From assembly GCA_951406725.2 (NCBI GenBank), contig OX597817.1, positions 59,024,001-59,088,000 on the forward strand: a stretch of 64,000 bases of DNA, in the 5' to 3' direction. Shown here in pieces: positions 2,286 to 61,100 of this stretch (its first letter is position 1; each line of letters begins with the position of its first letter). The translations under genes were made by a program, and so were the position numbers. The DNA is from Octopus vulgaris. Lineage: Eukaryota. The notes under the pieces are model-generated. The model ran no database searches. It saw only the letters and a list, made by a program, of their open reading frames with translations, and was not told the DNA's origin.

Positions 2286-2614
2286 AAAATGAAATACATC
2301 AGCAAACGCAGGTAAAAAGAAAGATGGAGAAAAAAGCAGATATTTATCATTTTGAAAAAATGTAGAATATTAAAGAATGTCTTATCAAAATGTCTAAAAC
2401 TTCAAAATTGTCCATAAATTTTACCGCTCGACCTTCCAGCATCAATAATGTAGAATCAGTCAGTTTCTCCAAAATTGTCTGGGGTTTTTTGTGCCCGTAG
2501 AAATAATTGCTTGTTATTTTATTTTATTTTATTTTATTTTATTTTTATTTATTCTTTATTCTAATCTGTTTTGTTTTGCTTTTTTACAGAGAGAAGCATC
2601 TTTCACCGATTAAA

Positions 2615-3004
2615 ATGAGTAACGATTCGAAAGTAACGGCACAAGGGCTGAAAGTCACACATGAACCAACCGAAGAAGTCCGCAGTAACAGAAACATGTC
2701 TTTACTGTGGGTCCCCTATGTTGTACTGGCCGCCATTATGGTACTCTTCTTTTCCGTATCTTTTGCTCATTATCACTTAAAAAGACGAAAATATCAACTA
2801 CGGAGATGGGCGTCAAAATGTCTACGCGAAGAAATGAAGAACTCGAGTGGTGAAGTCTTTGATCAACCCAATGTGCCACAAGTCGGCGAAGGGTTGGCAA
2901 AGTATAATGATTCTCTCCGACAGATCGATGATATAAAGACTTTACCTGGCGCTGTAGCTAAGATTGACTTTAAAAATGATTTCACGATCGATATAAAAAT
3001 TTGA
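2615..3004 (+). CDS. Probable host coding (terminal) exon encoding a ~129-aa single-pass membrane protein of unknown family
   Basis: Branch-like CTAAT (2561), long pyrimidine tract and TTTTTACAG acceptor ending 2589. In-frame AAAATGA start at 2615 in non-repetitive sequence. Protein has N-terminal sequons (NDS, NMS), one hydrophobic helix LLWVPYVVLAAIMVLFFSVSFA and a basic KRRK stop-transfer. The frame is open back to the acceptor, so coding may begin in an upstream exon. Confidence 0.65.
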   Translation: MSNDSKVTAQGLKVTHEPTEEVRSNRNMSLLWVPYVVLAAIMVLFFSVSFAHYHLKRRKYQLRRWASKCLREEMKNSSGEVFDQPNVPQVGEGLAKYNDSLRQIDDIKTLPGAVAKIDFKNDFTIDIKI

Positions 3005-19091: not shown

Positions 19092-20068
19092 TGTGGTGGG
19101 TTTCTCTCCGGAGGCCTTCTCCAGTTCAATTTCCTTCACTTACCAGTACCTAATCAACGAACATGGAGACATGTTTTCATCGTCGCATGTTTGTGAGCGG
19201 ACATTTCGTCTCGTTATTGCGACGAATCTCAAACTGCTTTGCTCTTTATTAAACTCGGTAATTTAACAAACTCGCAAAGAATGAGAAAATCGAGAGAGAT
19301 TTATGGAGACACATAACTAAATTACGAACATTAACATATTTCTATAAGATCTTGGTGTTTATTCAATCTAGGTTACTGCGTTGGTTTCTTTCAGGATTTG
19401 TAAAATATAGGCCGTGGGAAACATTATAGATCAGGATAATTAAGACAAAAATTCCGGACGCTCTCTCTCTCTCTCTCTTTCTCTCTTTGATGCCCAAGGG
19501 TAAGTATTAATTATCTTACGCAATTGAAATTTATACGGGTACAAGGAGTCACCAATTGACCGGGGTACATCAAAACACAAATAACGCAGTAAGCAGAAAC
19601 GATGACAACAAGACTTTTCGTTTAATTTATAGGAATAAGAGGTTGGTTATATTGGCGAGGAGTGCTAAAAAGAAGGGAATCAAAAGGAGAAAAATTAGCA
19701 AAACTTGTACATTTGCTATCGTTCGGTCCTTATTATCCGACATCCGACCAGAAGATAGCATGATGCAGGTTGTTGGGGTGTTCAGTGCCGTCTCAGAACC
19801 ACGGTCACAATACAGGGTGTCAGAATTTTGAGAAAAAAAATATTTTTATTTCTTCATTATTAATAGCGCTTTCGTTCGTTTCTCGAATTTGTCAAATGAA
19901 ATTTTGTGAATATACCAACAACTTGTTGATTTATATAAAACAGATGTTTTTGGGGTGGGGAGGGTTGTTTAGAAGAAGAGAACATTGCTTTTGTTGGTTT
20001 TCTTTTGTTTTGTTTTTGGGGTGCGGTTCTATTGACAATGGAGATGGATAGATAGAAATATTGATAGG

Positions 20069-20150
<82 letters not shown>

Positions 20151-20153
20151 TAG

Positions 20154-20238
<85 letters not shown>

Positions 20239-20239
<1 letters not shown>

Positions 20240-23200
20240 GTTTCTTTATTGGCCACACAGGGCTGCACACAGATGGGACAAATTACAAGGTAGAGCTTTT
20301 CTTTTGGGGGATGAAAAAAAAAAGTGGCGTAGGTTTTCGATCAAAAGGGATCGTAAAAGGGAAAAAGAAAAAAAGGAAAAGAAACAAAAGAAAAGAGAAA
20401 AGAAAAAAGGAGAAAAAAGAGGAAAAAAGGGCAAGAGGGAAAAAAACGATCAATAGGGATCGTGTATCACAGTGCCATGATGTACGGTGTAAAGGGGGAA
20501 GCAGATAAGGTTTATCCGTGGGAAGAAAAGCCTACGAAAAAGACCACGGTAACCTCGGTCAATATTGTTATATGTTACCACATTTGTTTGCAAGTGGGTA
20601 ACCCTCTGTTTTCAATTTCTGGGTTCATAGGATTATGCTCAAGGTGGCTTCGTCATTCATACGTGCCATCCTTGCTACATTCACCCATCTCTTTTTAAAA
20701 CATTCGCTAGACAAAACTTGCCTCTCTACTCTCACTTTCCTTTTCAAGTGGTACTTGAAGAAGTTGATGAGAGATTGACCAGAGAGGAAAGTGTTTATCT
20801 CCAATCCTTTCAGACGCGTCTACCAGATACATTCTTTCGCCATAGCCACAAGGATGATGAAAATAGCTCTTCCTTCCCGTTTGAAGGAAGGAGGCGTGAC
20901 AATATTGACGATAGACTCAGCTGATAAACCGACTCGTCCTACACGTGACAGCAGTTGTTCGACATAAGCCCACAGGTCAGAAATTGTTGGACACTGCACG
21001 AGTGCGTGCAGAACGGTTTCGTCGCTCTGACCGCATCTCGGGCAAGTCGGCCCCGTGTTTCTCGAGCCGTGTCTGTAGAGCTTATCCCAAACGGGTAGCG
21101 CTTCTCGGTAGCACTGCTAGACAAGGGATCTCTGGAAGTTGTCCATGGGCCCTGGCCCGAAAGTCGTCCCGAACAGGCGGGTCAGGTATTCCTCGTCGAT
21201 GTCCAGGTTCGCCCCGAGCTCGTCGTCGTACCTCCCCTCCACTAATCCCTATAGAATGCTTAGGTTGTGATGGAGTCACTCAGGGTCGGCCCGGGACGGC
21301 AGAGTTGCTTGAGAGCAACGCGACACTCGCGGTGCCATTCGCCCTTCCTCGGCCTCTTTTTGATCCACGACTGCAGTTCGGTCATGGAGGCTAGCTGCGG
21401 GAAAGCGTGCCTCACAAACGGCGACCACACCTGTTCACCGTCGTCTACATAGAGCCTGAGATGTCGCAGTCTCAGCGCGTGTCTGCGCATCATCAACCAC
21501 TGCATGCCCAGTCCTCCTTTTAACGGGTGTTGACAGCAAATGGATCGCCTGACCATCGGGACGCATCCTTTCCACAAGAAGCGAAGGAGAATGCGTTCTA
21601 ATTTGGTGATGGTAGGGTCGGGACAAGGCACGACGGCCAGGCGGTAGTAGATGACGGACGCGATGTACGTGTTCGCCACCTCCGCCCGACCTTCTAGGGA
21701 CAGTTTCCTCTCGGCCCATTGCCGGGCGAGAGTGACCACCCTACTCGTTTTCTCGTTCCAGTTCTTCTCCATTTGGAGGTCCGGACCGAACCAGACCCGA
21801 GCAACTCGACCGGACCGTCGGTCCAGCGTCCCACAACGGAGGCGCTGGTGGACGGCATGGGCTTGCTTCTCCAGGTGCCTAGTCGCAAGCCCACTGACTT
21901 TTCCCGGTTGATTTTCGCTCCTGTCACCGCTTCGTAGTTTTTCAGTGTCTCGCCGACCTGCTCGATGTGCTCGTGGCTAGACACTATGAGGGTGACGTCG
22001 TCCGCGTATGCAGACACGTTCGTCCCGCATCCCAGTTCTCGCGGGATGCCCCTCAGAGTTGCCAGCTTCCGCAATAATGGCTCGAGAGTCAATACGTATA
22101 GAAGCGACGAGAGGGGGCATCCTTGACGGACCGAACGTGCGATGTCGAAAGGTCTCGATAGATGTCCATTTACGCGAATTACCGGACGGATGCCTCTGTA
22201 CAAAGCGGCTATCCAGCCGCGGAAGACGGGACCGAAGCCAGCCGCTCTGAGTATCGATGGTTTACCCTATCGAAAGCTTTCGATTGATCCAAATTGATCA
22301 GCGCCCCACCCATGCCAGATTGGTTAACTACCCTGTCTATGATGTAGCGCATCAGGTGGAGTTTGTCATGGATGGTCCGGCCCGGCACGGCGCACGTTTG
22401 CGCCTTGTCGACCAGTTTCTCTATGACAAGCGCCAACCTCTTGGCTAACACCTTGGCCAAAATTTTCAAGTCTGCATTAAGCAGAGTGATGGGCCTAAAG
22501 TTATCTATTACATTTCCCTTGTTTAGATCTTTCTTCAGCAGTGTTACGGCTTCTCGGCTCACAAAACCAGGAATGCTCCCGTTTTGCTGCCAGTTGCAGT
22601 ACACCGCTGCCAAGACGTCTCCAAACAAGTCTGACATACAGCTGTAAAGCTCGTAGGGTAGACCATCCAAACCCGGCGATTTGTCCCCCGAGCATTCTGC
22701 CATCGCGTCCTGCACTTCCGCCGCCGTGATGGCACCTTCGCAGCACCCTGTCTCTCTTGTCGACAGTTGTTGTAGGCTGTGTAGGTAGGCACTGAAGTCC
22801 ACCCTACGTTCTTGCCCGCCACTCGTCCCGAACAGTCGGGCAAAATGCTGTTGAAAGGCCTCACACATTTTACTTGGCTCGAGCAATTCGCGCCCCTGTT
22901 CATCTACCAGAGACCGAATCGTGGCTTTGTTGCCCTGTTGCGCCTCTGGTACCCGGGCCTCTCTCGCGGCTCCAACACCTTCGTTCCTTAGAGAACGCAT
23001 CCTAGCTCTGACAGCACACCCTTCGTGTTTGGTGTTGAAGTGTTGGTCGAGGGCCAACCTCGCCGCCAAAACGTCGGATGCGATGCCGCTTCTAATTGCC
23101 TCTTCTAGCTTCTTAACTAGCTCACCCTCTACTCTATTTCTATCTATGGCTAGTGCTTTGCTGTACCTAATCGCTTCTGCTTTTACTGCTCTCTTTACTG

Positions 23201-23879
23201 CTCTCTCTTCTGCTTTTACTGCTCTCTTTTACTGCTCTCTTTACTACTCTCTCTTTACTGCTCTCTCCATTTATTGTTGATGATGGCTCCCGTCAAAGCC
23301 CTCTTTACTAGTGTGCTAATCCGGTCTCTGAAAACCTGTCTCGATGGAAAAGATGCGTTTAGTTTCCAGTATCCGGGACCCTTCCTAAGTGTCTTACCTA
23401 AGTCTAGCGTACATGTCACAAGTTTGTGATCCGTGTAGCTGACTATGTGGAATTGTGGACATCCTATGCTATCTCTATCAACTGTCCTACACAGTATCCT
23501 ATCTAGATACGATCTCGACGACCCGATGCGGTTGCTCCATGTCCACGTTGGCGCATTCGGGTGGTCTAGTCAGAACCTGTCAGACAGTTGAAAGCGTCTG
23601 AGCAGGTCTCTGAGGCATTTGCATCCCCGTCTATTCCTATCTCTGCCCACGTAGTCTACATGCGTGTCCAAGGTAGCATTCCAATCCCCCACTAAGAGTA
23701 AAGGACGAGACGTTCCCAATAATATTTCTAGACGTTGAAAGAAATCCGCCCGACCTGTTAAGGGCGGTGCGTAGACTGATACGAGTCGAAAAGCGCACCC
23801 ATTGCTGCCGTCGACATCCAGGACGACCAGTCTACCCTCCGGGTCTACGAATATTATCTTTACTTTGAGATCCAGAGAT
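20239..23879 (-). mobile_element. 5'-truncated Tx1/L1-clade LINE (APE endonuclease, RT, C-terminal Cys/His motif), frameshifted, embedded in (GATA)n
   Basis: [20 protein letters not shown] (APE). KSPGLDGLPYELY, NFRPITLLNADLKILAK, LDQSKAFDRVNH, SVRQGCPLS and YADD (RT). 3' end AATAAAGAAACT(TATC)n. Confidence 0.95.
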
Positions 23880-23880
23880 T

Positions 23881-23929
<49 letters not shown>

Positions 23930-23966
23930 GTAGGTAGGTAGGTAGGTAGGTAGGTAGGTAGGTAGG

Positions 23967-24050
<84 letters not shown>

Positions 24051-24790: not shown

Positions 24791-24884
24791 TATATATATA
24801 TATACACATATATATAAGAATTTTTTTGCGTAATAAGATAAAAAACCGAGGCTGTATAGATATTAGAGCATTTATAGATAGAAG

Positions 24885-24936
24885 GTCTTACAGCTGTTTC
24901 TAGGATATTAATTAATAATATCCTTTCATCGGAGAC
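24885..24936 (-). ncRNA. Minimal type-I hammerhead ribozyme motif
   Basis: GTCT-CCGATGA-a-AGGATATT..AATATCCT-a-GAAA-CAGCTG-TA-AGAC on the minus strand. Confidence 0.75.
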
Positions 24937-25416
24937 AGTGTGAGAGGAAAAATTAAGTCATAGTTAGTTTCGATGTGATACAAAATAGAGAGTGAGGTGG
25001 AGGAAAGAAAATAGATGTAAGATATGTATGGGTAATTCCCTACTGGGAATGACCAAGTTAAAAAAATCTGCTGGATCTCACTCATGAGGGAATCTTACAT
25101 TGCTTATAAACTCTATATTTGGAAGGACTCATATTAAACTCTGTTGAACTTTTGGATTTTACTCAAAGGATATTGGAATATTGCATATATACCATTATGC
25201 CTATAAAATGGATTTACAACTTCAATATCCATACATATCTTACATCTATATTTTACTCAAAGGATATTGGAATATTGCATATATACCATTATGCCTATAA
25301 AATGGATTTACAACTTCAATATCCATACATATCTTACATCTATTTTCTTTCCTCCACCTCACTCTCTATTTTGCATCACATCTAAACTAACTATGACTTA
25401 ACTATCCTCTCACACC

Positions 25417-25468
25417 GTGTCCGATGAAGGGATATTATTAATTAATATCCTAGAAACAGCTGTAAGAC
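25417..25468 (+). ncRNA. Minimal type-I hammerhead ribozyme motif (one stem-I mismatch)
   Basis: GTGT-CCGATGA-a-GGGATATT..AATATCCT-a-GAAA-CAGCTG-TA-AGAC. Confidence 0.7.
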
Positions 25469-25931
25469 CTTCTATCTATACAGCCTTAGTTTTTTTATCT
25501 TATTACGCAAAAAATTCATATATACACACGCTGACATAGAACCAACGTTGAACTCTTTATTCGCAATATTACCGAATCTGGAACTTAACTATGGTCTGTC
25601 TATAGCACTTATTCAGCATTACCTGACACCTTTGGGTCCAATGACACCATTATCTCTTATAAATATATATATACATTTATAAATGAGGGTGAAAAATTTG
25701 ATATTAATTTAATAATACCATCAGTTTAACACCAAGTGGCTGAGCACATAAAACTAGGGAGATAATACAAATACAAATACACATATGTATACACGCAAAG
25801 CTAGCACATGCCAATGCCAAACATATCTATACGTGAACATTTGTAGAGATGACCCACATTTGGAATAGAAATGCAATTCTCTGCTTTACCTTCAAACATT
25901 CAATTTTGGAGAGAATCCCTTAATGAAGTGT

Positions 25932-33535: not shown

Positions 33536-33570
33536 GCCATGTATGTGTGCATGTATGTAGGTATGTATGT

Positions 33571-33725
33571 TATTATTCAGTTTTATTTCAAGATTTCTTG
33601 CCAATAGAGAAAGAGCCGGTTTCTAACCTAGATCCAAGGCTCCTTCATTGGAATTTCAACACAAAAAACAGGGTAGTTTTGTATGTATGTATACGGGCAG
33701 ATTTGTATGTTTTGTTTTATATGTC

Positions 33726-33786
<61 letters not shown>

Positions 33787-33981
33787 TTGCATATCTAGAC
33801 ATGCTCATATATACTTAAATGGAAAGTTTTACAGATTTATATAGTTCCAGCAATGGCTTGGATCTGTAGTCTTCTCCTTTCTGGTTTCTCACGATGAGTA
33901 TTTAGGTAGTGTGTTACACATCCCAATGCCCCAATAATTACAGGTATAAACCTGAACTTGTAATCTTGAATATAGTAACTT
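33571..33981 (-). mobile_element. R4/Dong-like (RLE) LINE 3' fragment
   Basis: Same 3' UTR as 35955 (CCAATAGAGAAAGAGCCGGTTTCTAACCTAGATCCAAGG) and FRFIPVIIG peptide; 3' end abuts (ATGT)n. Confidence 0.85.
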
Positions 33982-33984
33982 GGA

Positions 33985-34342
33985 TCGAGGGTATTTTAGA
34001 TTTCAAAAAACCCTCGATCCAATAACACGGTTTACAAACTCTATGCTTAAAATGACCAATTTTAAATACTATTGGAACTTTTTACAGGAAACATATATGT
34101 ATACCAATCTGCTTAAATAATGGAACTGCAGATACAATACCCCTGCATATTTCGCGTCTATTTTCATTCCTCCTCTTCACTCTCTATTTCATATCTTCTC
34201 TAGAATAACTATTGCTTAACTATTTTCTCGCACCGTCTCTGATGAAGGGATATATAAAATATCCCGGAAACAGCTGTAAGACCTTCTCTTAATAAATGTT
34301 CTGAAATCTTTCACAGCCTTGGATTTTTATCTCATTCTGTTA

Positions 34343-34345
<3 letters not shown>
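33985..34345 (+). mobile_element. Penelope-like pseudo-LTR
   Basis: Homologous to 25330-25520; contains a hammerhead motif. Confidence 0.7.
34235..34282 (+). ncRNA. Minimal type-I hammerhead ribozyme motif (best-preserved core)
   Basis: GTCT-CTGATGA-a-GGGATAT-ataaa-ATATCCC-g-GAAA-CAGCTG-TA-AGAC. Confidence 0.8.
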
Positions 34346-35260: not shown

Positions 35261-35954
35261 ATATATAGTGAAATGTCTTTCCCTACCGATCCTGATACTA
35301 AATACACGTGTTGCTTTATTGAGACACGTTAAATCCACGAGCACTTTTATAACGGATTAAAAGCACACAGCACGAGCCCAGCCGAGCAGGGGGGAAAAAA
35401 AACAACAAAATAGCTGAAATACTCGGCAAGTTCACCGTGTTATTAAACAAACACAAACGCGCATACAAACAAATACACGAGCGTGTGTGGTGTGTGTGTG
35501 TGTGTGTGTGTGTGCTAAAGTATGTTAGGATTTTTTTTCTCATATGTTTCTGGCCAAGGGTTTCAATTTCGTCTTCAAGATGTTAGCCTCATAACTAACA
35601 TACAAATATTCTGCAATGAAATATCATCGTTGTTAAATAGTTTCGTTGCTTTTCGTTCGTTCTTTGAATGCAAATATTTGTTTTAACCGAAATCGATGAA
35701 TTGTTCAGGCGAGGAACGAATCGAACATTTGATCACAACAGCGATTATCGTTTTTTAAAATTATTTTATCTAGGATTAAGTGTTTATATCTAATAAACAC
35801 ATAGTAATGCAATTTAAAATATACCCTATCTATATGTATGTCTCGTATGTATGTATGTATGTATGTATGTATGTATGTATGTATGTATGTATGTATGTAT
35901 GTATGTATGTATGTACGTACGTATGTACGTATGTATGTATGTATGTATGTATGT

Positions 35955-36532
35955 CATTATTCAGTTTATTTCAAGCTTTCTTACCAATAGAGAAAGAACC
36001 GGTTTCTAACCTAGATCCAAGGTTCCCTCATTGGAATTTCAACATCAGCAACAGGGTATTTTTGTATGTATGTATATAGATTTGTATGTCTTGCTGTATG
36101 TATGTATTCTCATGCATATAGCTACATATCTAGACAAGCTCATATATATTTAAAGGATAAACTTCTGGAAAGTTTTACAGATTTTTACAGTTCCAGTGAT
36201 GGATTGAATCTGTAGTCTTCGAATTAGCTTTCTCCTTTCTGGTTTTAATAAGACTAATTTCTCAAGATTGGTATTTAGGCAGTGTGTTACATATCCCAGG
36301 GCCCCAATAATTACTGGTATAAACCTGAAATTGTAATCTGGCAAGAGTAAGCGCAGATTTCTTAATAGTTCAGCATAGGTGTTCTCTTTTTCATTGACCT
36401 TCAGCTTTATGTTGACATCCGCCGGGCAGCTAACTTCCACAACTGTGCACAGTTTCTCTTCTCCATCCCAGATCATTATATCAGGCTTACTGTGCTTATA
36501 TTTTATTGAGGTCTTCACTGGTACATTGCAGT
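35955..36532 (-). mobile_element. R4/Dong-like LINE 3' fragment with restriction-like endonuclease domain, flanked on both sides by (ATGT)n
   Basis: ORF 36150-36518: KPDIMIWD..VVEVSCPADVNIKLKVNEKENTY..FIPVIIGALG, a PD-(D/E)xK RLE of R4-clade type. Confidence 0.9.
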
Positions 36533-36879
36533 GTATGTACCTATGTTTGTATGTACGTATGTATATATGTATGTACGTATGTATATGTGTGTATGTATGT
36601 ACATATGTATGTATGTACGTGTGTATATATGTATATACGTATGTATGTACCTATGTTTGTATGTATATATGTGTGTATGTATGTATATATGTATGTATGT
36701 AGGTATGCATGTATGTACGTACGTATGTATCCTTAGATGTTCTTATCCAAAAAAAGAAACACACTCTAAAGCATCAGAGCAGTGATGTATCTTGATAGGA
36801 AGTTCGAAGTATGATGGCTGGTCATAGAGTGACCATGGGTTTCGTACCTACAAAGCGCTTAGCAGCGTAAGCAACTCGT

Positions 36880-43665: not shown

Positions 43666-44643
43666 TCACTATTATCCATGCCTGCGTCTATACAAAAGAA
43701 CCTCCCTCATTTGTTATGGTTTCACATGAAGCTAATCAATGCCAAATGCACTTTATCCGGAAAAACCAACCATTCTTTTCGAAGCTTACTCATCACGTTA
43801 ACAATGTTGGCCTAGCGTTGTTTTAAGGTTTGGTCTTATAGAAATGCCAACGTAACTAAAACCCGAAGCAATAATTAATTATTTCCTATTTAACTTATTT
43901 CTCTGTTACTCCTTCTCAAAGCGACAATATATTTCCTATTGTTGTCTCGTGATAAATAGCAAATAAGGCCTCGCCATTAGATATAATTTGTCTCCATTTT
44001 GTAGCCGTCGTTTTCTCATGCAACAAAGAGATCAGGGAAGATGAACCGAACCATGTAGAACGCATTCATTTGCTTCCAAAGGTCACAAAAAAACCATTTA
44101 TATTCTAAAGTTGTTGTTTCTTTTGTTTAATTCCTTTTTTATTTTTGTCTTCCGGAATCGCTGATAAATGTTTTTCAATCAAACAACAACTTATAACAGA
44201 TCAGAGTCACCTCCAAATGCATCTACTTCTACTTAAATATACATAAAGAACATACATACACACATACATACATACATACATACATACATACATACATAAA
44301 TACATACATACACACACACACACATACATACATACATACATTCATACATATATACATACATACATGCATACATACATATACACATAGACACATATGCACA
44401 TACATACATACACACATACACACATACGTATATACATACATAAATACATTAGTACGTACGTACTTACACACGTACATATATACAGTCGTAAAAGCAGCCA
44501 GCCATACATACATACATACATACATAAATACATACATGCATGCATACTTACATATACACGCATACATAACATACATACATACATAACATACATACATACA
44601 TACATACATACATACATACATACATACATACATACATACATAC

Positions 44644-45040
44644 AAAAAGCATGTTCTGTCATAGAGATCAGCTCTCCGGCTGATGGGAATATTTCTTTGA
44701 AAATCAAAGAGAAAGAAAATAACCATGGACAACTGCTTCGAAACCTCCAGCTTCTACATCCGGATTGCAGATTAACATTTATACCAATAATAATTGGAGC
44801 ATTTGGTCCTGTCAGTAAATGCCTGTCAGTCTGGATAAGCTTGGATTTTCAGAAAAAAATCAACCAACTGATTCGCACGTTTCAAATACAATCCGTAAGC
44901 GGAACAGTAAAACTATGCAAGACTTTTCTCAGGTTTAAAATGGGACCATTTTCGTAATCTATATTCCAAAGATGGAGCTTTGTATCTTTGTTAGAGACCA
45001 GCTTCTCCTTCAGAGGAAGAATTTAAACGATTGAATACAG
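44644..45040 (+). mobile_element. R4/Dong-like LINE 3' fragment (divergent subfamily) starting directly after (TACA)n
   Basis: CSVIEISSPADGNISLKIKEKENNHGQLLRNLQLLHPD..FIPIIIGAFG..GTVKLCKTF. Confidence 0.85.
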
Positions 45041-45685
45041 ATGGCCTTTTTTTTCTCTTTTCGTTTTCAGTTGTAGGTCACTAGAGCACTGTAAACAACA
45101 ATTTCCTTCATTATCTAGAAGAGACATACAAACATAGACACCTCCAAAGTAAATAGCCGCCATAGATTAATTTCTAGAAACGAAACAATGTCGTTCGGAA
45201 CCTTGAAATCCATTATCTAGGATTTAATAGACATGATTTGTGCAGATTTTAATGATTTAATCCGTTTGAGCCTCCAATTAACGAATAGTGTCCACATAGA
45301 TGAAACGGTGTGAGGCGGTGTTTGTATTGACTTCGGATCTATCTGTATATTCGCATACATAATAACTTTATACACACGCACGCACGCACGCACACACACG
45401 CATACTCAGAGAGACATCTGATAGCCTCAAATGCACATACACACACACGCACATACGTCAGATAACTTCACACATGCACACATGCCCATAGACGCGTACA
45501 CACACATGCACAAACACTCAGTATACACGCACATATTGCCTCACACACGCACACATTAGCTTCATATACGCGCAGACACACGCACACACATAAGTCACTG
45601 TTGTCTCCCTTGCCATTCAGGCCTCAAGCAAACTTTTTCCTCTTCCGGTCATTTCAGCATGCCTTGACCGTTTAACTCGGACACA

Positions 45686-50373: not shown

Positions 50374-51150
50374 TAGCAGTAATACCCGTCGTTGGTCGGT
50401 TAACTACTTTTACTGTTTCTCGGGAGCCACATTCAAAGTATTATTATATATGTATATTTTACTCCTCCTGTATGTGTGTATTTTTATACGAGAAAAACTT
50501 GTAATAATTGAAGTAGAAAAAAGATAAATTTCATAAATGAACTTCTGTTTGTTTATTACATGATAATAATAAGTGAGTTGTATGTGTTATTTTATTTATC
50601 AATACATTAATGGTAATTATCTAATACACTTCATTGAAATAGGTAATTTATTCATTCTTGAATGTAATGATAGTAATGGTAAATTAAGTTATTGAAGTAT
50701 TCATGTTGCATTAAGAGTGAATATTTCTTTGTAGACAATGTTTTTTGTTTTATTTCGGGGTGCATTAGCAAAATGATTTGCTTTTGCTCCCACATGTGAT
50801 GCTCCTACATAAAGTTGGCCATGTGAAAAGCATAGTTGTTCAAGTTGCAATCCAGCAACTTTTAGTGTTTGGCCCAGACTTTTATTAATGCCCATGGCAA
50901 AAGAAACATGGATACGAAACTGTAACCAGTTAAATTGGAATGGGACATTAGATGGTATAACTGGTATGCGAGGAACGAAGACGATGTCACCGTTACCACA
51001 ACCAGTGAGAATATTTGCCTCCATGCAGTTCCTCATAGGCTTGTGCACAATTAGTCTTGCACCATTGCATAAGTTTTGTTGAGACAAATTAGGCAATAAC
51101 ATAATAGCTTCCTCTGAACCATTTAGTTTCATTTTGCTTGACAAACAAAC
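50373..51150 (-). mobile_element. Helitron 3' fragment with PIF1-like helicase C-terminus
   Basis: LCNGARL..VFVPRIP..QF..SFAMGINKSLGQTL..FSHGQLYVGAS..TKNIVYKE. Terminal hairpin remnant and CTAA (for CTAG) near 50373. Confidence 0.9.
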
Positions 51151-51183
51151 GGAATCTCTCTTTTACACACACACACACGTTTA

Positions 51184-59085: not shown

Positions 59086-60717
59086 ATGCCCACCTCGAGG
59101 TATACCACGATTACCAAATGATAACATGACCAGCTCCATCTAGTCACTTTGAGTTATCTCCCTTAGCTCCTTTTTGATTAATTTATGTAAATTATCTTGA
59201 CCGTAAATGTGCACTATTTCTTTGTTTATTTATTTATTTTGCATAACCTTAAGTTCTTAAGCTGCTGGAGATAAGGTTGGACAATTGTTGTGCTGATGAC
59301 GGTTATCGAAGAAGAAACATGTGTCTTCTTATCTCCGGACAGTAAGTCTGTCCTTTTCCTCAATGATATGTCAGTTTTAGAGATATTTTGATTCTTGAGA
59401 TTATCTCCTCCTCTCAAATGGAATTAACTTTAATTGCAATTTGGTAATTATGATACATTCTCAAGAAACGGAAATGATTTTAAGAAACCAAGAATTTATG
59501 TCGTATGGTATTTGATATACCTGTATTTCTCTATGTTGTTTACTTGAAACACCCGGATATAAATATGCACTGAATGACACTTTTTTTCCTTTTACAGTCG
59601 GTGAATTTGCGTGGACCACTTCCAGTTTGGTTTGAATTATCTCAGTGTGAAAGCTATTGGTGTCCCTGAATGACACAGCTAAATGTTTTGATAACCCCTT
59701 GCAATGGTAAGGATCGGTATGGCTTTGGGGAGCAATTTCAATTGATAGGAATAAACAAGGAAGGAGTGCTGCTTTTTGAAACTCCTTACCCAGTGTAACT
59801 TCAGCATAATAACGAACGCAATGCAACAAACGATTTCAAGAATGTAAAATATAGTCACGGTTGCCTAATTTTCAGTTGGACAAATAGTGGGAACTATCAA
59901 TGTAAAAGCGATCAAACATTAAGTACGTCTCCGAAAGTGAAAATAATGATTTATTAAATAAACATGTTCCTAGGTTATACAAACATTTAGTCTATAATAT
60001 TTTAAGAGAGACTTTACGAACGTTTTTCACAAGTGTCTGTAAATGGCATTATAAATACTATATAAGGATGTTTTTGAACGGAGTTGGTTCAAATACTTCC
60101 TCTAATATTTAAATAAATATTTGGTGTGAAAGAAGAGGAAATGAAGACTGGGAAGGCAATGAATAAAATTTTAGTTGTGGTTGCGATAATGAATTCTATA
60201 TCAGTTTAAAATTAATGTCTTTGAGTGTCTAATCATACAGATTGATTTAAAAGTTGATGGTTACCCACTTAAGAACTTCGCTTTGCGTCCATGTTGTTTC
60301 CGATTCTGTTTCCCTACATGGCACTGGAGATTAAAAAGTGCATTTCTGCACTAACTATGAAATCATGTGATTTGCAGCTAAATTCTGTTTTTAAAGGGCT
60401 CTCTTCGAGAGTTGCATTCCCTCGCATTCGATACTATGTGTTTATTTATTTTAGTAGTTTTGACTTTAAGAGTCCCTCCTAGCGTGTGGCATTTATGTAT
60501 AGAAATGGCCTCAATATAATATATACATACATATATACATATATACATATATGCATACATACGTATATACATACATACATACATACATACATACATACAT
60601 AAATACATACATACATACATACATACATAATACATACATACATACATACATACATACATACATACATACATACATACATACATACATACATACATACATA
60701 CATACATACATACACGC

Positions 60718-61100
60718 GTTGGAATAGAGAAGAGAAACTGTGCACAGTTGTAGAAATTAGCTGCCCTGCGGATGTCAACATAAAGCTGAAGATCAGTGAA
60801 AAAGAAATTACCTGCGCTGAATTATTGAGAAATATGCAGTTACTCTATCCAGATTACAAGTTCAGGTTTATACCCTTAATTATTGTGGCCGTGCTGTCTA
60901 AATACCAATCTTGAGAAATTAGGCTTCTCTGAACAAGGAAGGAGAAAACTAATTCAAAGACTACAGATCCAATCCATCACTGGAACTGTAAAAGTCTGTA
61001 AAACTTTCCAGAAGTTTCTCATTTAAATATATATGAGCATGTCTAGATATCTAACTATATGCATGAGAATACATACATAAAACAAAACGTACAAATCTGC
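60718..61100 (+). mobile_element. R4/Dong-like LINE 3' fragment starting after (TACA)n
   Basis: WNREEKLCTVVEISCPADVNIKLKISEKE..LLYPDYKFRFIP..QIQSITGTVKVCKTFQKF; close to the 35955 copy. Confidence 0.9.

Follow-up and report, generated by a model that had tools for sequence, protein, structure and literature searches.

Strand-specific association of two Dong-like LINE families with (TACA)n microsatellites in the Octopus vulgaris genome

LINE fragments in the window and their junctions

The 64,000-nucleotide stretch of Octopus vulgaris DNA analysed here (the window) carries four fragments that are 5'-truncated, dead copies of two related single-ORF LINE families, designated A and B. These copies and the arrays that adjoin them are located as follows, in window positions.

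33539..33571, minus strand: short TACA array, 3' junction of the 33572 copy
33572..33980, minus strand: family A copy, more decayed than the 35955 copy, with the internal tract expanded to (TA)n
35833..35954, minus strand (TATG on the plus strand): (TACA)n array, 3' junction of the 35955 copy
35955..36530, minus strand: family A copy, 5'-truncated with a complete 3' end, 93% to the consensus built here
35955..36063, minus strand: last ~105 bp of the 3' UTR, predicted to form a hairpin and homologous to the 3' UTR of family B
36064..36107, minus strand: degenerate TACA tract within the family A 3' UTR
36153..36530, minus strand: ORF end, a restriction-like endonuclease (RLE) with PD...E.S.P...K.Y motifs
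36531..36730, minus strand: degenerate (TACA)n array, 5' truncation junction of the 35955-36530 copy
44250..44644, plus strand: long (TACA)n array, 5' junction of the family B copy
44645..45044, plus strand: family B copy, 5'-truncated, with its last bases and tail missing, 90% to the B consensus
60516..60714, plus strand: (TACA)n array, 5' junction of the 60719 copy
60719..61098, plus strand: family A copy, 5'-truncated, with the terminal segment missing and followed by SINE-like DNA

Sense-strand (TACA)n matches of 0.85-1.0 over 20 bp are present at the 3' ends of the 33572 and 35955 copies and at the 5' ends at 36530, 44645 and 60719. The original prediction had listed five TACA junctions for the four fragments, and all five match. 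However, the fragments have eight junctions, and the other three (33980, 45044 and 61098) lack TACA, with scores of 0.35-0.45. At 33980 (5'), the neighbour of the family A copy is a different repeat that has a hairpin at its terminus; at 45044 (3'), the family B copy ends a few bases before the family end; and at 61098 (3'), the family A copy is without its last ~100 bp and continues into SINE-like DNA.

Other features of the window were also recorded. The dispersed repeat that adjoins the 5' end of the 33572 copy (33985-34345) begins with a 12-bp inverted repeat and is possibly a MITE or a Helitron end; related pieces are found at 24832-25473 and in the fetched loci L100, L144 and L174. At 2507-3004 (plus strand), an exon-like ORF for which one transmembrane stretch is predicted may belong to a host gene. 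An ORF piece at 50701-51162 (minus strand) carries motifs that we take to resemble those of a Helitron/Pif1 helicase C-terminus.

Anatomy and age of families A and B

An upstream walk through same-genome matches gives family A a length of ~4.0 kb. One 5' end is common to seven family A copies, and six of these full-length ends lie directly after a TACA/CA-type array, the seventh following a short degenerate stretch. The consensus of 36 long copies contains one 991-aa open frame, its N-terminal part being broken at 2-5x coverage, and the intact ORFs of relatives span 1,153-1,217 aa. RVT_1 (Pfam) is matched by a natural family A copy with an E value of 2.5e-12. A C-terminal CX2CX8HX4C knuckle, an RHD motif and a PD-(D/E)xK-type RLE, which follow the R4/Dong motif definition in the accessible part of PMC5678591, could be aligned across the families, and no APE domain is present. 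The R4/Dong-like character that had been predicted is borne out by a single ORF with RT, a CCHC knuckle and a C-terminal RLE. The fixed 3' end, variable 5' truncation and absence of terminal repeats are those of a target-primed non-LTR retrotransposon.

An AlphaFold model of a full-length homologue (pLDDT 84) has R2 proteins as its top structural match (E 7e-35), with L1 ORF2p ranking lower. The N-terminal domain of a relative, L291, is modelled as three helices (pLDDT 83), and SANT/Myb domains are frequent among its top structural matches at Z scores of 5-6 (maximum 6.0), which lie below the significance range of the tool. Pfam, PDB sequence and Foldseek searches with the N-terminal domain yielded no significant match. 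The L291 domain aligns with that of the TAA-flanked relatives L296/L297, and no zinc finger was seen.

Family B, to which the 44645 copy belongs, is ~64% identical to family A at the nucleotide level and is its sister on the RT tree. The terminal UTR is common to both families and is predicted to form a hairpin, in which 4/15 pairs are changed on both sides in this comparison of two families.

Several family A loci carry further rearrangements. Three copies with internal deletions (L260, L275 and L324), of which L260 joins the first ~280 bp to the last ~1.1 kb, are possible non-autonomous derivatives. A full-length copy at L084 is interrupted by 1,347 bp of unrelated DNA; this insertion has inverted ends, is flanked by a 7-8 bp duplication and looks like a DNA transposon. 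At L045/L326, L117/L324, L122, L253 and L330, two to four A/B copies are stacked head-to-tail, each in the TACA tail of the preceding copy.

Family A copies of at least 300 bp differ from the consensus by a median of 6.6% (JC 0.069; n=113, a sample biased to the best matches). A wave of octopus LINE and SINE activity at JC 0.065 is dated to 18 Myr in the accessible text of PMC13282606. Family A appears to have spread at about JC 0.07, near this wave, and to be extinct. A same-genome protein search, in which 136 of 28,318 candidates were scored, found no intact family A ORF; besides the query, two short matches without stops were among the 136. Fixed-position samples totalling 1.07 Mb contain 10 family A matches (one a 72% fragment) and 3 family B matches, and one 16-mer from the family A ORF has 2,654 exact matches genome-wide. 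Together, these counts suggest that roughly 10-25 thousand family A copies are present.

Genome-wide association with (TACA)n arrays

The genome assembly comprises 2.80 Gb in 227 contigs. Family A loci were picked by a match to the element body, not to the flank, and the window's own copies were included. A junction was called TACA when a 20-mer with at least 85% match to (TACA)n lay within 10 bp. Because the family A 3' UTR holds an internal TACA-like tract, junctions within this tract did not enter the 5' counts. After further removal of duplicates, of pieces below 78% identity, of junctions that fell in the terminal segment or at most 60 bp from the edge of their locus, and of three loci that all represent one copy broken by a later insertion, 116 unique 5' junctions remained.

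TACA was called at 67 of the 116 family A junctions, compared with 1.0% of random 30-mers (binomial p 2e-101). The polarity is nearly absolute, with 67 sense-only junctions and 1 antisense-only junction. TACA likewise accounts for 67 of the 73 junctions that adjoin any microsatellite, compared with a share of 11.5% at random microsatellite positions. Arrays of (CA)n or mixed type occur at 5/116 junctions, and (TAA)n, the canonical Dong target, occurs at 0/116 family A and 0/41 family B 5' junctions.

A scan for exact 16-mer matches yields a similar asymmetry. On the reverse strand, where each locus was counted once, (CATA)3 lies at most 30 bp upstream in 59 of 1,304 cases and (TATG)3 in 0, and the forward strand gives 280 overlapping sense matches versus 4 overlapping antisense matches at one locus. 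The predicted strand-specific association with (TACA)n is upheld for 5' as well as 3' ends; at 5' ends, the enrichment is 67/116 versus 1% and the polarity 67:1 and 59:0. The family B reference was trimmed of a SINE before its junctions were counted; TACA is found in the sense orientation at 19/41 5' junctions (1 antisense) and at 17/37 3' junctions (0 antisense). The 44645 copy was therefore correctly predicted to represent a divergent family with the same TACA preference. In the fixed-position sample, 5/11 body junctions are TACA and 0 are antisense.

Counting against targeting, 49 of the 116 family A 5' junctions fall below the TACA threshold. Later insertions or deletions explain some of these, and others may be off-target events. 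No empty pre-insertion site was seen; four loci were extended in search of nested insertion in an older internal tract, and no clean rejoining pair was found among them. The array lies directly behind another Dong copy at 9 of the 67 TACA-flanked 5' junctions, whereas at the other 58 no Dong copy lies directly upstream of the array. Of 138 TACA arrays in the 1.07 Mb of fixed-position samples, 14 adjoin an A/B copy, in each case with the expected polarity, and 124 have no A/B neighbour. Given that so few arrays sit behind a Dong copy and that most have no A/B neighbour, the arrays are targets and not just tails. We place the probability that (TACA)n itself is targeted at about 95%.

The description of TACA as the dominant tetranucleotide repeat agrees with its share of 940 kb (0.56%, versus 0.50% for GATA), but the margin is narrow. 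In 940 kb of the O. vulgaris genome, no TACT array was found.

A TAA-flanked family and other microsatellite niches

A protein search recovered a third family, C, which serves as a control within the same genome. Family C is young, with open frames of up to at least 1,344 aa and copies that are mostly 98-99.7% identical (L198-L220, e.g. L207), and it is probably among the recently active Dong-R4 elements of PMC13282606. Its junctions are (TAA)n at 9/9 truncated 5' ends and 20/21 3' ends, as is canonical for Dong, and families C and A/B never exchange arrays within this genome. Older TAA-flanked relatives are present as well (L331).

The original prediction had envisaged a family whose specificity shifted from TAA to the dominant repeat of its host. 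In this wording the proposal is not supported: a canonical, TAA-flanked Dong family coexists with family A, and A/B occupy a deep separate branch. Because the coexisting family C is only 37% identical to family A in RT, family A is not a lightly retargeted Dong.

A Tx1/L1-like LINE remnant (window 20239-23875, minus strand; one copy) lies between (AGAT)n arrays at 20042-20238 and 23876-24050, which on the sense strand of the remnant are (TATC)n at either end. The suggestion that retroelements partition microsatellites is consistent with separate niches in TACA (A and B), TAA (C) and, from this single Tx1 copy in the window, GATA, but 'partitioning' describes the pattern only.

Relatives with tetranucleotide flanks and the RT tree

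A metagenome scan returned 42 loci, and 22 of these were examined for arrays. Three loci with intact ORFs (L285, L288 and L291) have (TACA)n at both ends, eight (L281, L282, L283, L286, L287, L292, L293 and L294) have (TACT)n at one or both ends, and L296, L297 and L301 have TAA/TAAA flanks. No array was found at 8/22 loci, which are mostly short internal contigs. L286 starts with (ATA)n (positions 1-51, at the contig start) while its 3' end is (CTTA)n; rather than a target, the (ATA)n may represent repeated Asn codons within the ORF. A metagenome scan with a single protein and a scan of viral contigs found no relatives. Family A shares 61% RT identity with the TACT-flanked L281, and a close homologue from Argonauta is among the homologues listed.

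The RT tree (57 rows, 350 columns, LG+G4) was built from unnamed homologues, with the TAA-flanked group standing in for canonical Dong; no named R4/Dong reference was present among the 120 homologues listed, the 10 clusters or the ESM Atlas. A 39-row branch that holds all TACA/TACT loci is separated from an 18-row branch that holds family C and the TAA loci with 100/100 support, where the 18-row label goes back to the first tree and rooting depends on a single long outgroup. Among rows with labelled flanks, 14/14 in the 39-row branch are TACA or TACT, and 4/4 in the 18-row branch are TAA/TAAA. TACA and TACT each require three changes on this tree, none of them within one source assembly. Target type tracks source assembly without exception, with the TACT loci coming from two related assemblies and the non-octopus TACA loci from one.

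Since branch members elsewhere also have TACA or TACT flanks, the use of four-base repeats predates this host lineage. Families A and B represent, in the octopus genome, a wider four-base-repeat branch that stands apart from TAA-targeting Dong.

Possible basis of target choice

We hypothesize that the element protein itself picks the (TACA)n array, and we consider it probable that the protein is the main selector. By analogy with R2, the predicted Myb-like domain would bind the array, and the RLE would nick the TGTA (bottom) strand. Target-primed reverse transcription might then proceed from the nick, beginning at the 3' end of an RNA that carries the hairpin and probably also a short (CAUA)n tail produced by read-through. 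For R2Bm, the accessible portion of PMC10499050 places Myb helix 3 in the major groove and reports that deletion of the ZnF and Myb domains abolishes nicking and that homology in the 3' RNA is unneeded.

Joining at the 5' end may be aided by 2-5 nt of microhomology with the array. Microhomology of at least 3 nt is found at 25 of 63 junctions versus 26% in simulation (p 0.013), a modest excess; the test was simulation-matched, as exact extension is unreliable because mutations stop it. In three pairs of independent copies (L048 and L125; L051 and L115; L222 and L223), both members are truncated at an identical point of the element. The element reads CATAC/ACAT-like at the truncation points of L048/L125 and L051/L115, and shared truncation points are possible microhomology hotspots.

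A candidate specificity residue lies in predicted helix 3. It is Asp in 5/5 TACT families and Gln/Glu in 4/4 TACA families, its changes fit the three target changes, and Asp is rare (2/30) at this position in unlabelled homologues. Of 1,043 columns, 8 separate the two target types, this residue being one of them, and 10/126 label splits give at least 8. Because the eight-column total is not significant, the residue is a post hoc lead. The idea that a widespread, undescribed Dong sister branch is specialized in four-base repeats and flips repeatedly between TACA and TACT through this one Myb-helix residue (Asp for TACT, Gln/Glu for TACA) is tentative and rather doubtful; if true, a single residue would encode the change of target in an RLE retrotransposon. 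An R/K before the catalytic PD was also considered as a specificity residue and was rejected, as it shows no covariation with the helix-3 residue in unlabelled homologues.

Among the alternatives, an RNA-guided choice is the most probable, though unlikely. Here a loose endonuclease would nick many TA-containing repeats, and only nicks that pair with the (CAUA)n read-through tail would prime efficiently, such that the target is inherited via the RNA and tracks the common four-base repeat of the host. The three changes each for TACA and TACT, none within a source assembly, agree with such inheritance, and the perfect match between target and source assembly is fitted equally well by an RNA- or host-driven choice. 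A protein-blind model does not, however, predict that three separate TACT branches share a helix-3 Asp that is otherwise rare. Pairing could also account for the observation that most of 67 3' junctions start with the same few repeat units in a fixed phase, and for the few (CA)n or mixed arrays (5/116). About 11 of 30 terminal-segment matches (L251-L280) have their start within the internal TACA tract and form mini-copies of ~100 bp, in mild excess (by eye) over the upstream truncation rate, which fits repeat-containing cDNA pairing with the target. Yet no exchange of arrays between family C and A/B is seen in this genome, and R2 functions without a need for 3' homology (PMC10499050, accessible portion). 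Selection chiefly by the element protein remains our preferred reading.

It is very improbable that there is no targeting at all, with the element making its own (CATA)n tail and the 5' arrays being tails of earlier copies acquired through tandem insertion or jumps between templates. Head-to-tail stacks do occur commonly among the fetched loci (L117, L122, L045 and L330), but full-length 5' ends also join arrays, and with only 9/67 junctions behind a Dong copy and 58/67 without one directly upstream, neighbours' tails cannot explain most TACA-flanked junctions. Least credible is a passive association, in which random insertions survive in, or spawn, the microsatellites of a repeat-rich genome: some microsatellite does occur in 8.8% of random 30-mers, but the polarity of 67:1 and 59:0 refutes this reading, and the predominance of TACA (67/73 versus an 11.5% share) among microsatellite-flanked junctions also speaks against it.

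Comparison with known systems

Microsatellite targeting and changes of target are well known across LINE clades. To our knowledge, nearly all biochemistry on site-specific RLE retrotransposons comes from R2, and how targets change is an open question. The elements described here offer close natural pairs with targets one base apart, intact ORFs of both target types and a TAA control, and thereby make the choice between protein and RNA tail directly addressable. With a LINE of its own in each of the TAA, TACA and probably GATA arrays of octopus-type genomes, the lumping of elements as 'Dong-R4' in repeat annotation hides two lineages. In addition, TACA microsatellite markers can adjoin multicopy flanks.

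Dong elements of the R4 clade (Bombyx mori Dong, DongAg, DongBg and ostracod Dong1/2) likewise have a single ORF with RT and RLE and insert into microsatellites, according to the accessible parts of PMC7998251 and PMC3812793. The former also describes a divergent Myb/SANT-like N-terminus without zinc fingers in R4/Dong. The canonical Dong target given in these sources is (TAA)n, whereas families A and B are associated with (TACA)n and their relatives with (TACT)n. Dong-R4 LINEs are abundant in octopus genomes, with five recently active families (accessible text of PMC13282606, PMC9115989 and PMC8967140). This text states no target sequence for octopus Dong-R4, and the word 'target' is absent from that of PMC13282606. 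In contrast to the recently active families reported there, A and B are old, and the young, intact family C is TAA-flanked. A literature search, with Repbase and key subscription papers beyond its reach, found no tetranucleotide target for R4/Dong, and the repeat libraries of PMC13282606 may hold such families. The four-base-repeat Dong branch is likely a new target class.

Targets of a similar kind occur in other clades. Togen targets (TG)n, and some HERO families are also microsatellite-targeting (accessible part of PMC4640811). R2 differs in its N-terminal zinc fingers and 28S rDNA target, and is ~15-19% identical to the modelled homologue in the structural alignment. Waldo of the R1 clade (WaldoAg1/2 and WaldoFs1) targets ACAY microsatellites, a repeat class to which TACA also belongs (accessible part of PMC3812793). 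Waldo, however, uses an APE endonuclease, whereas families A and B have a C-terminal RLE, no APE and a predicted helical, Myb-like N-terminus. Because A and B carry an RLE without an APE domain, the target that they share with Waldo is convergent.
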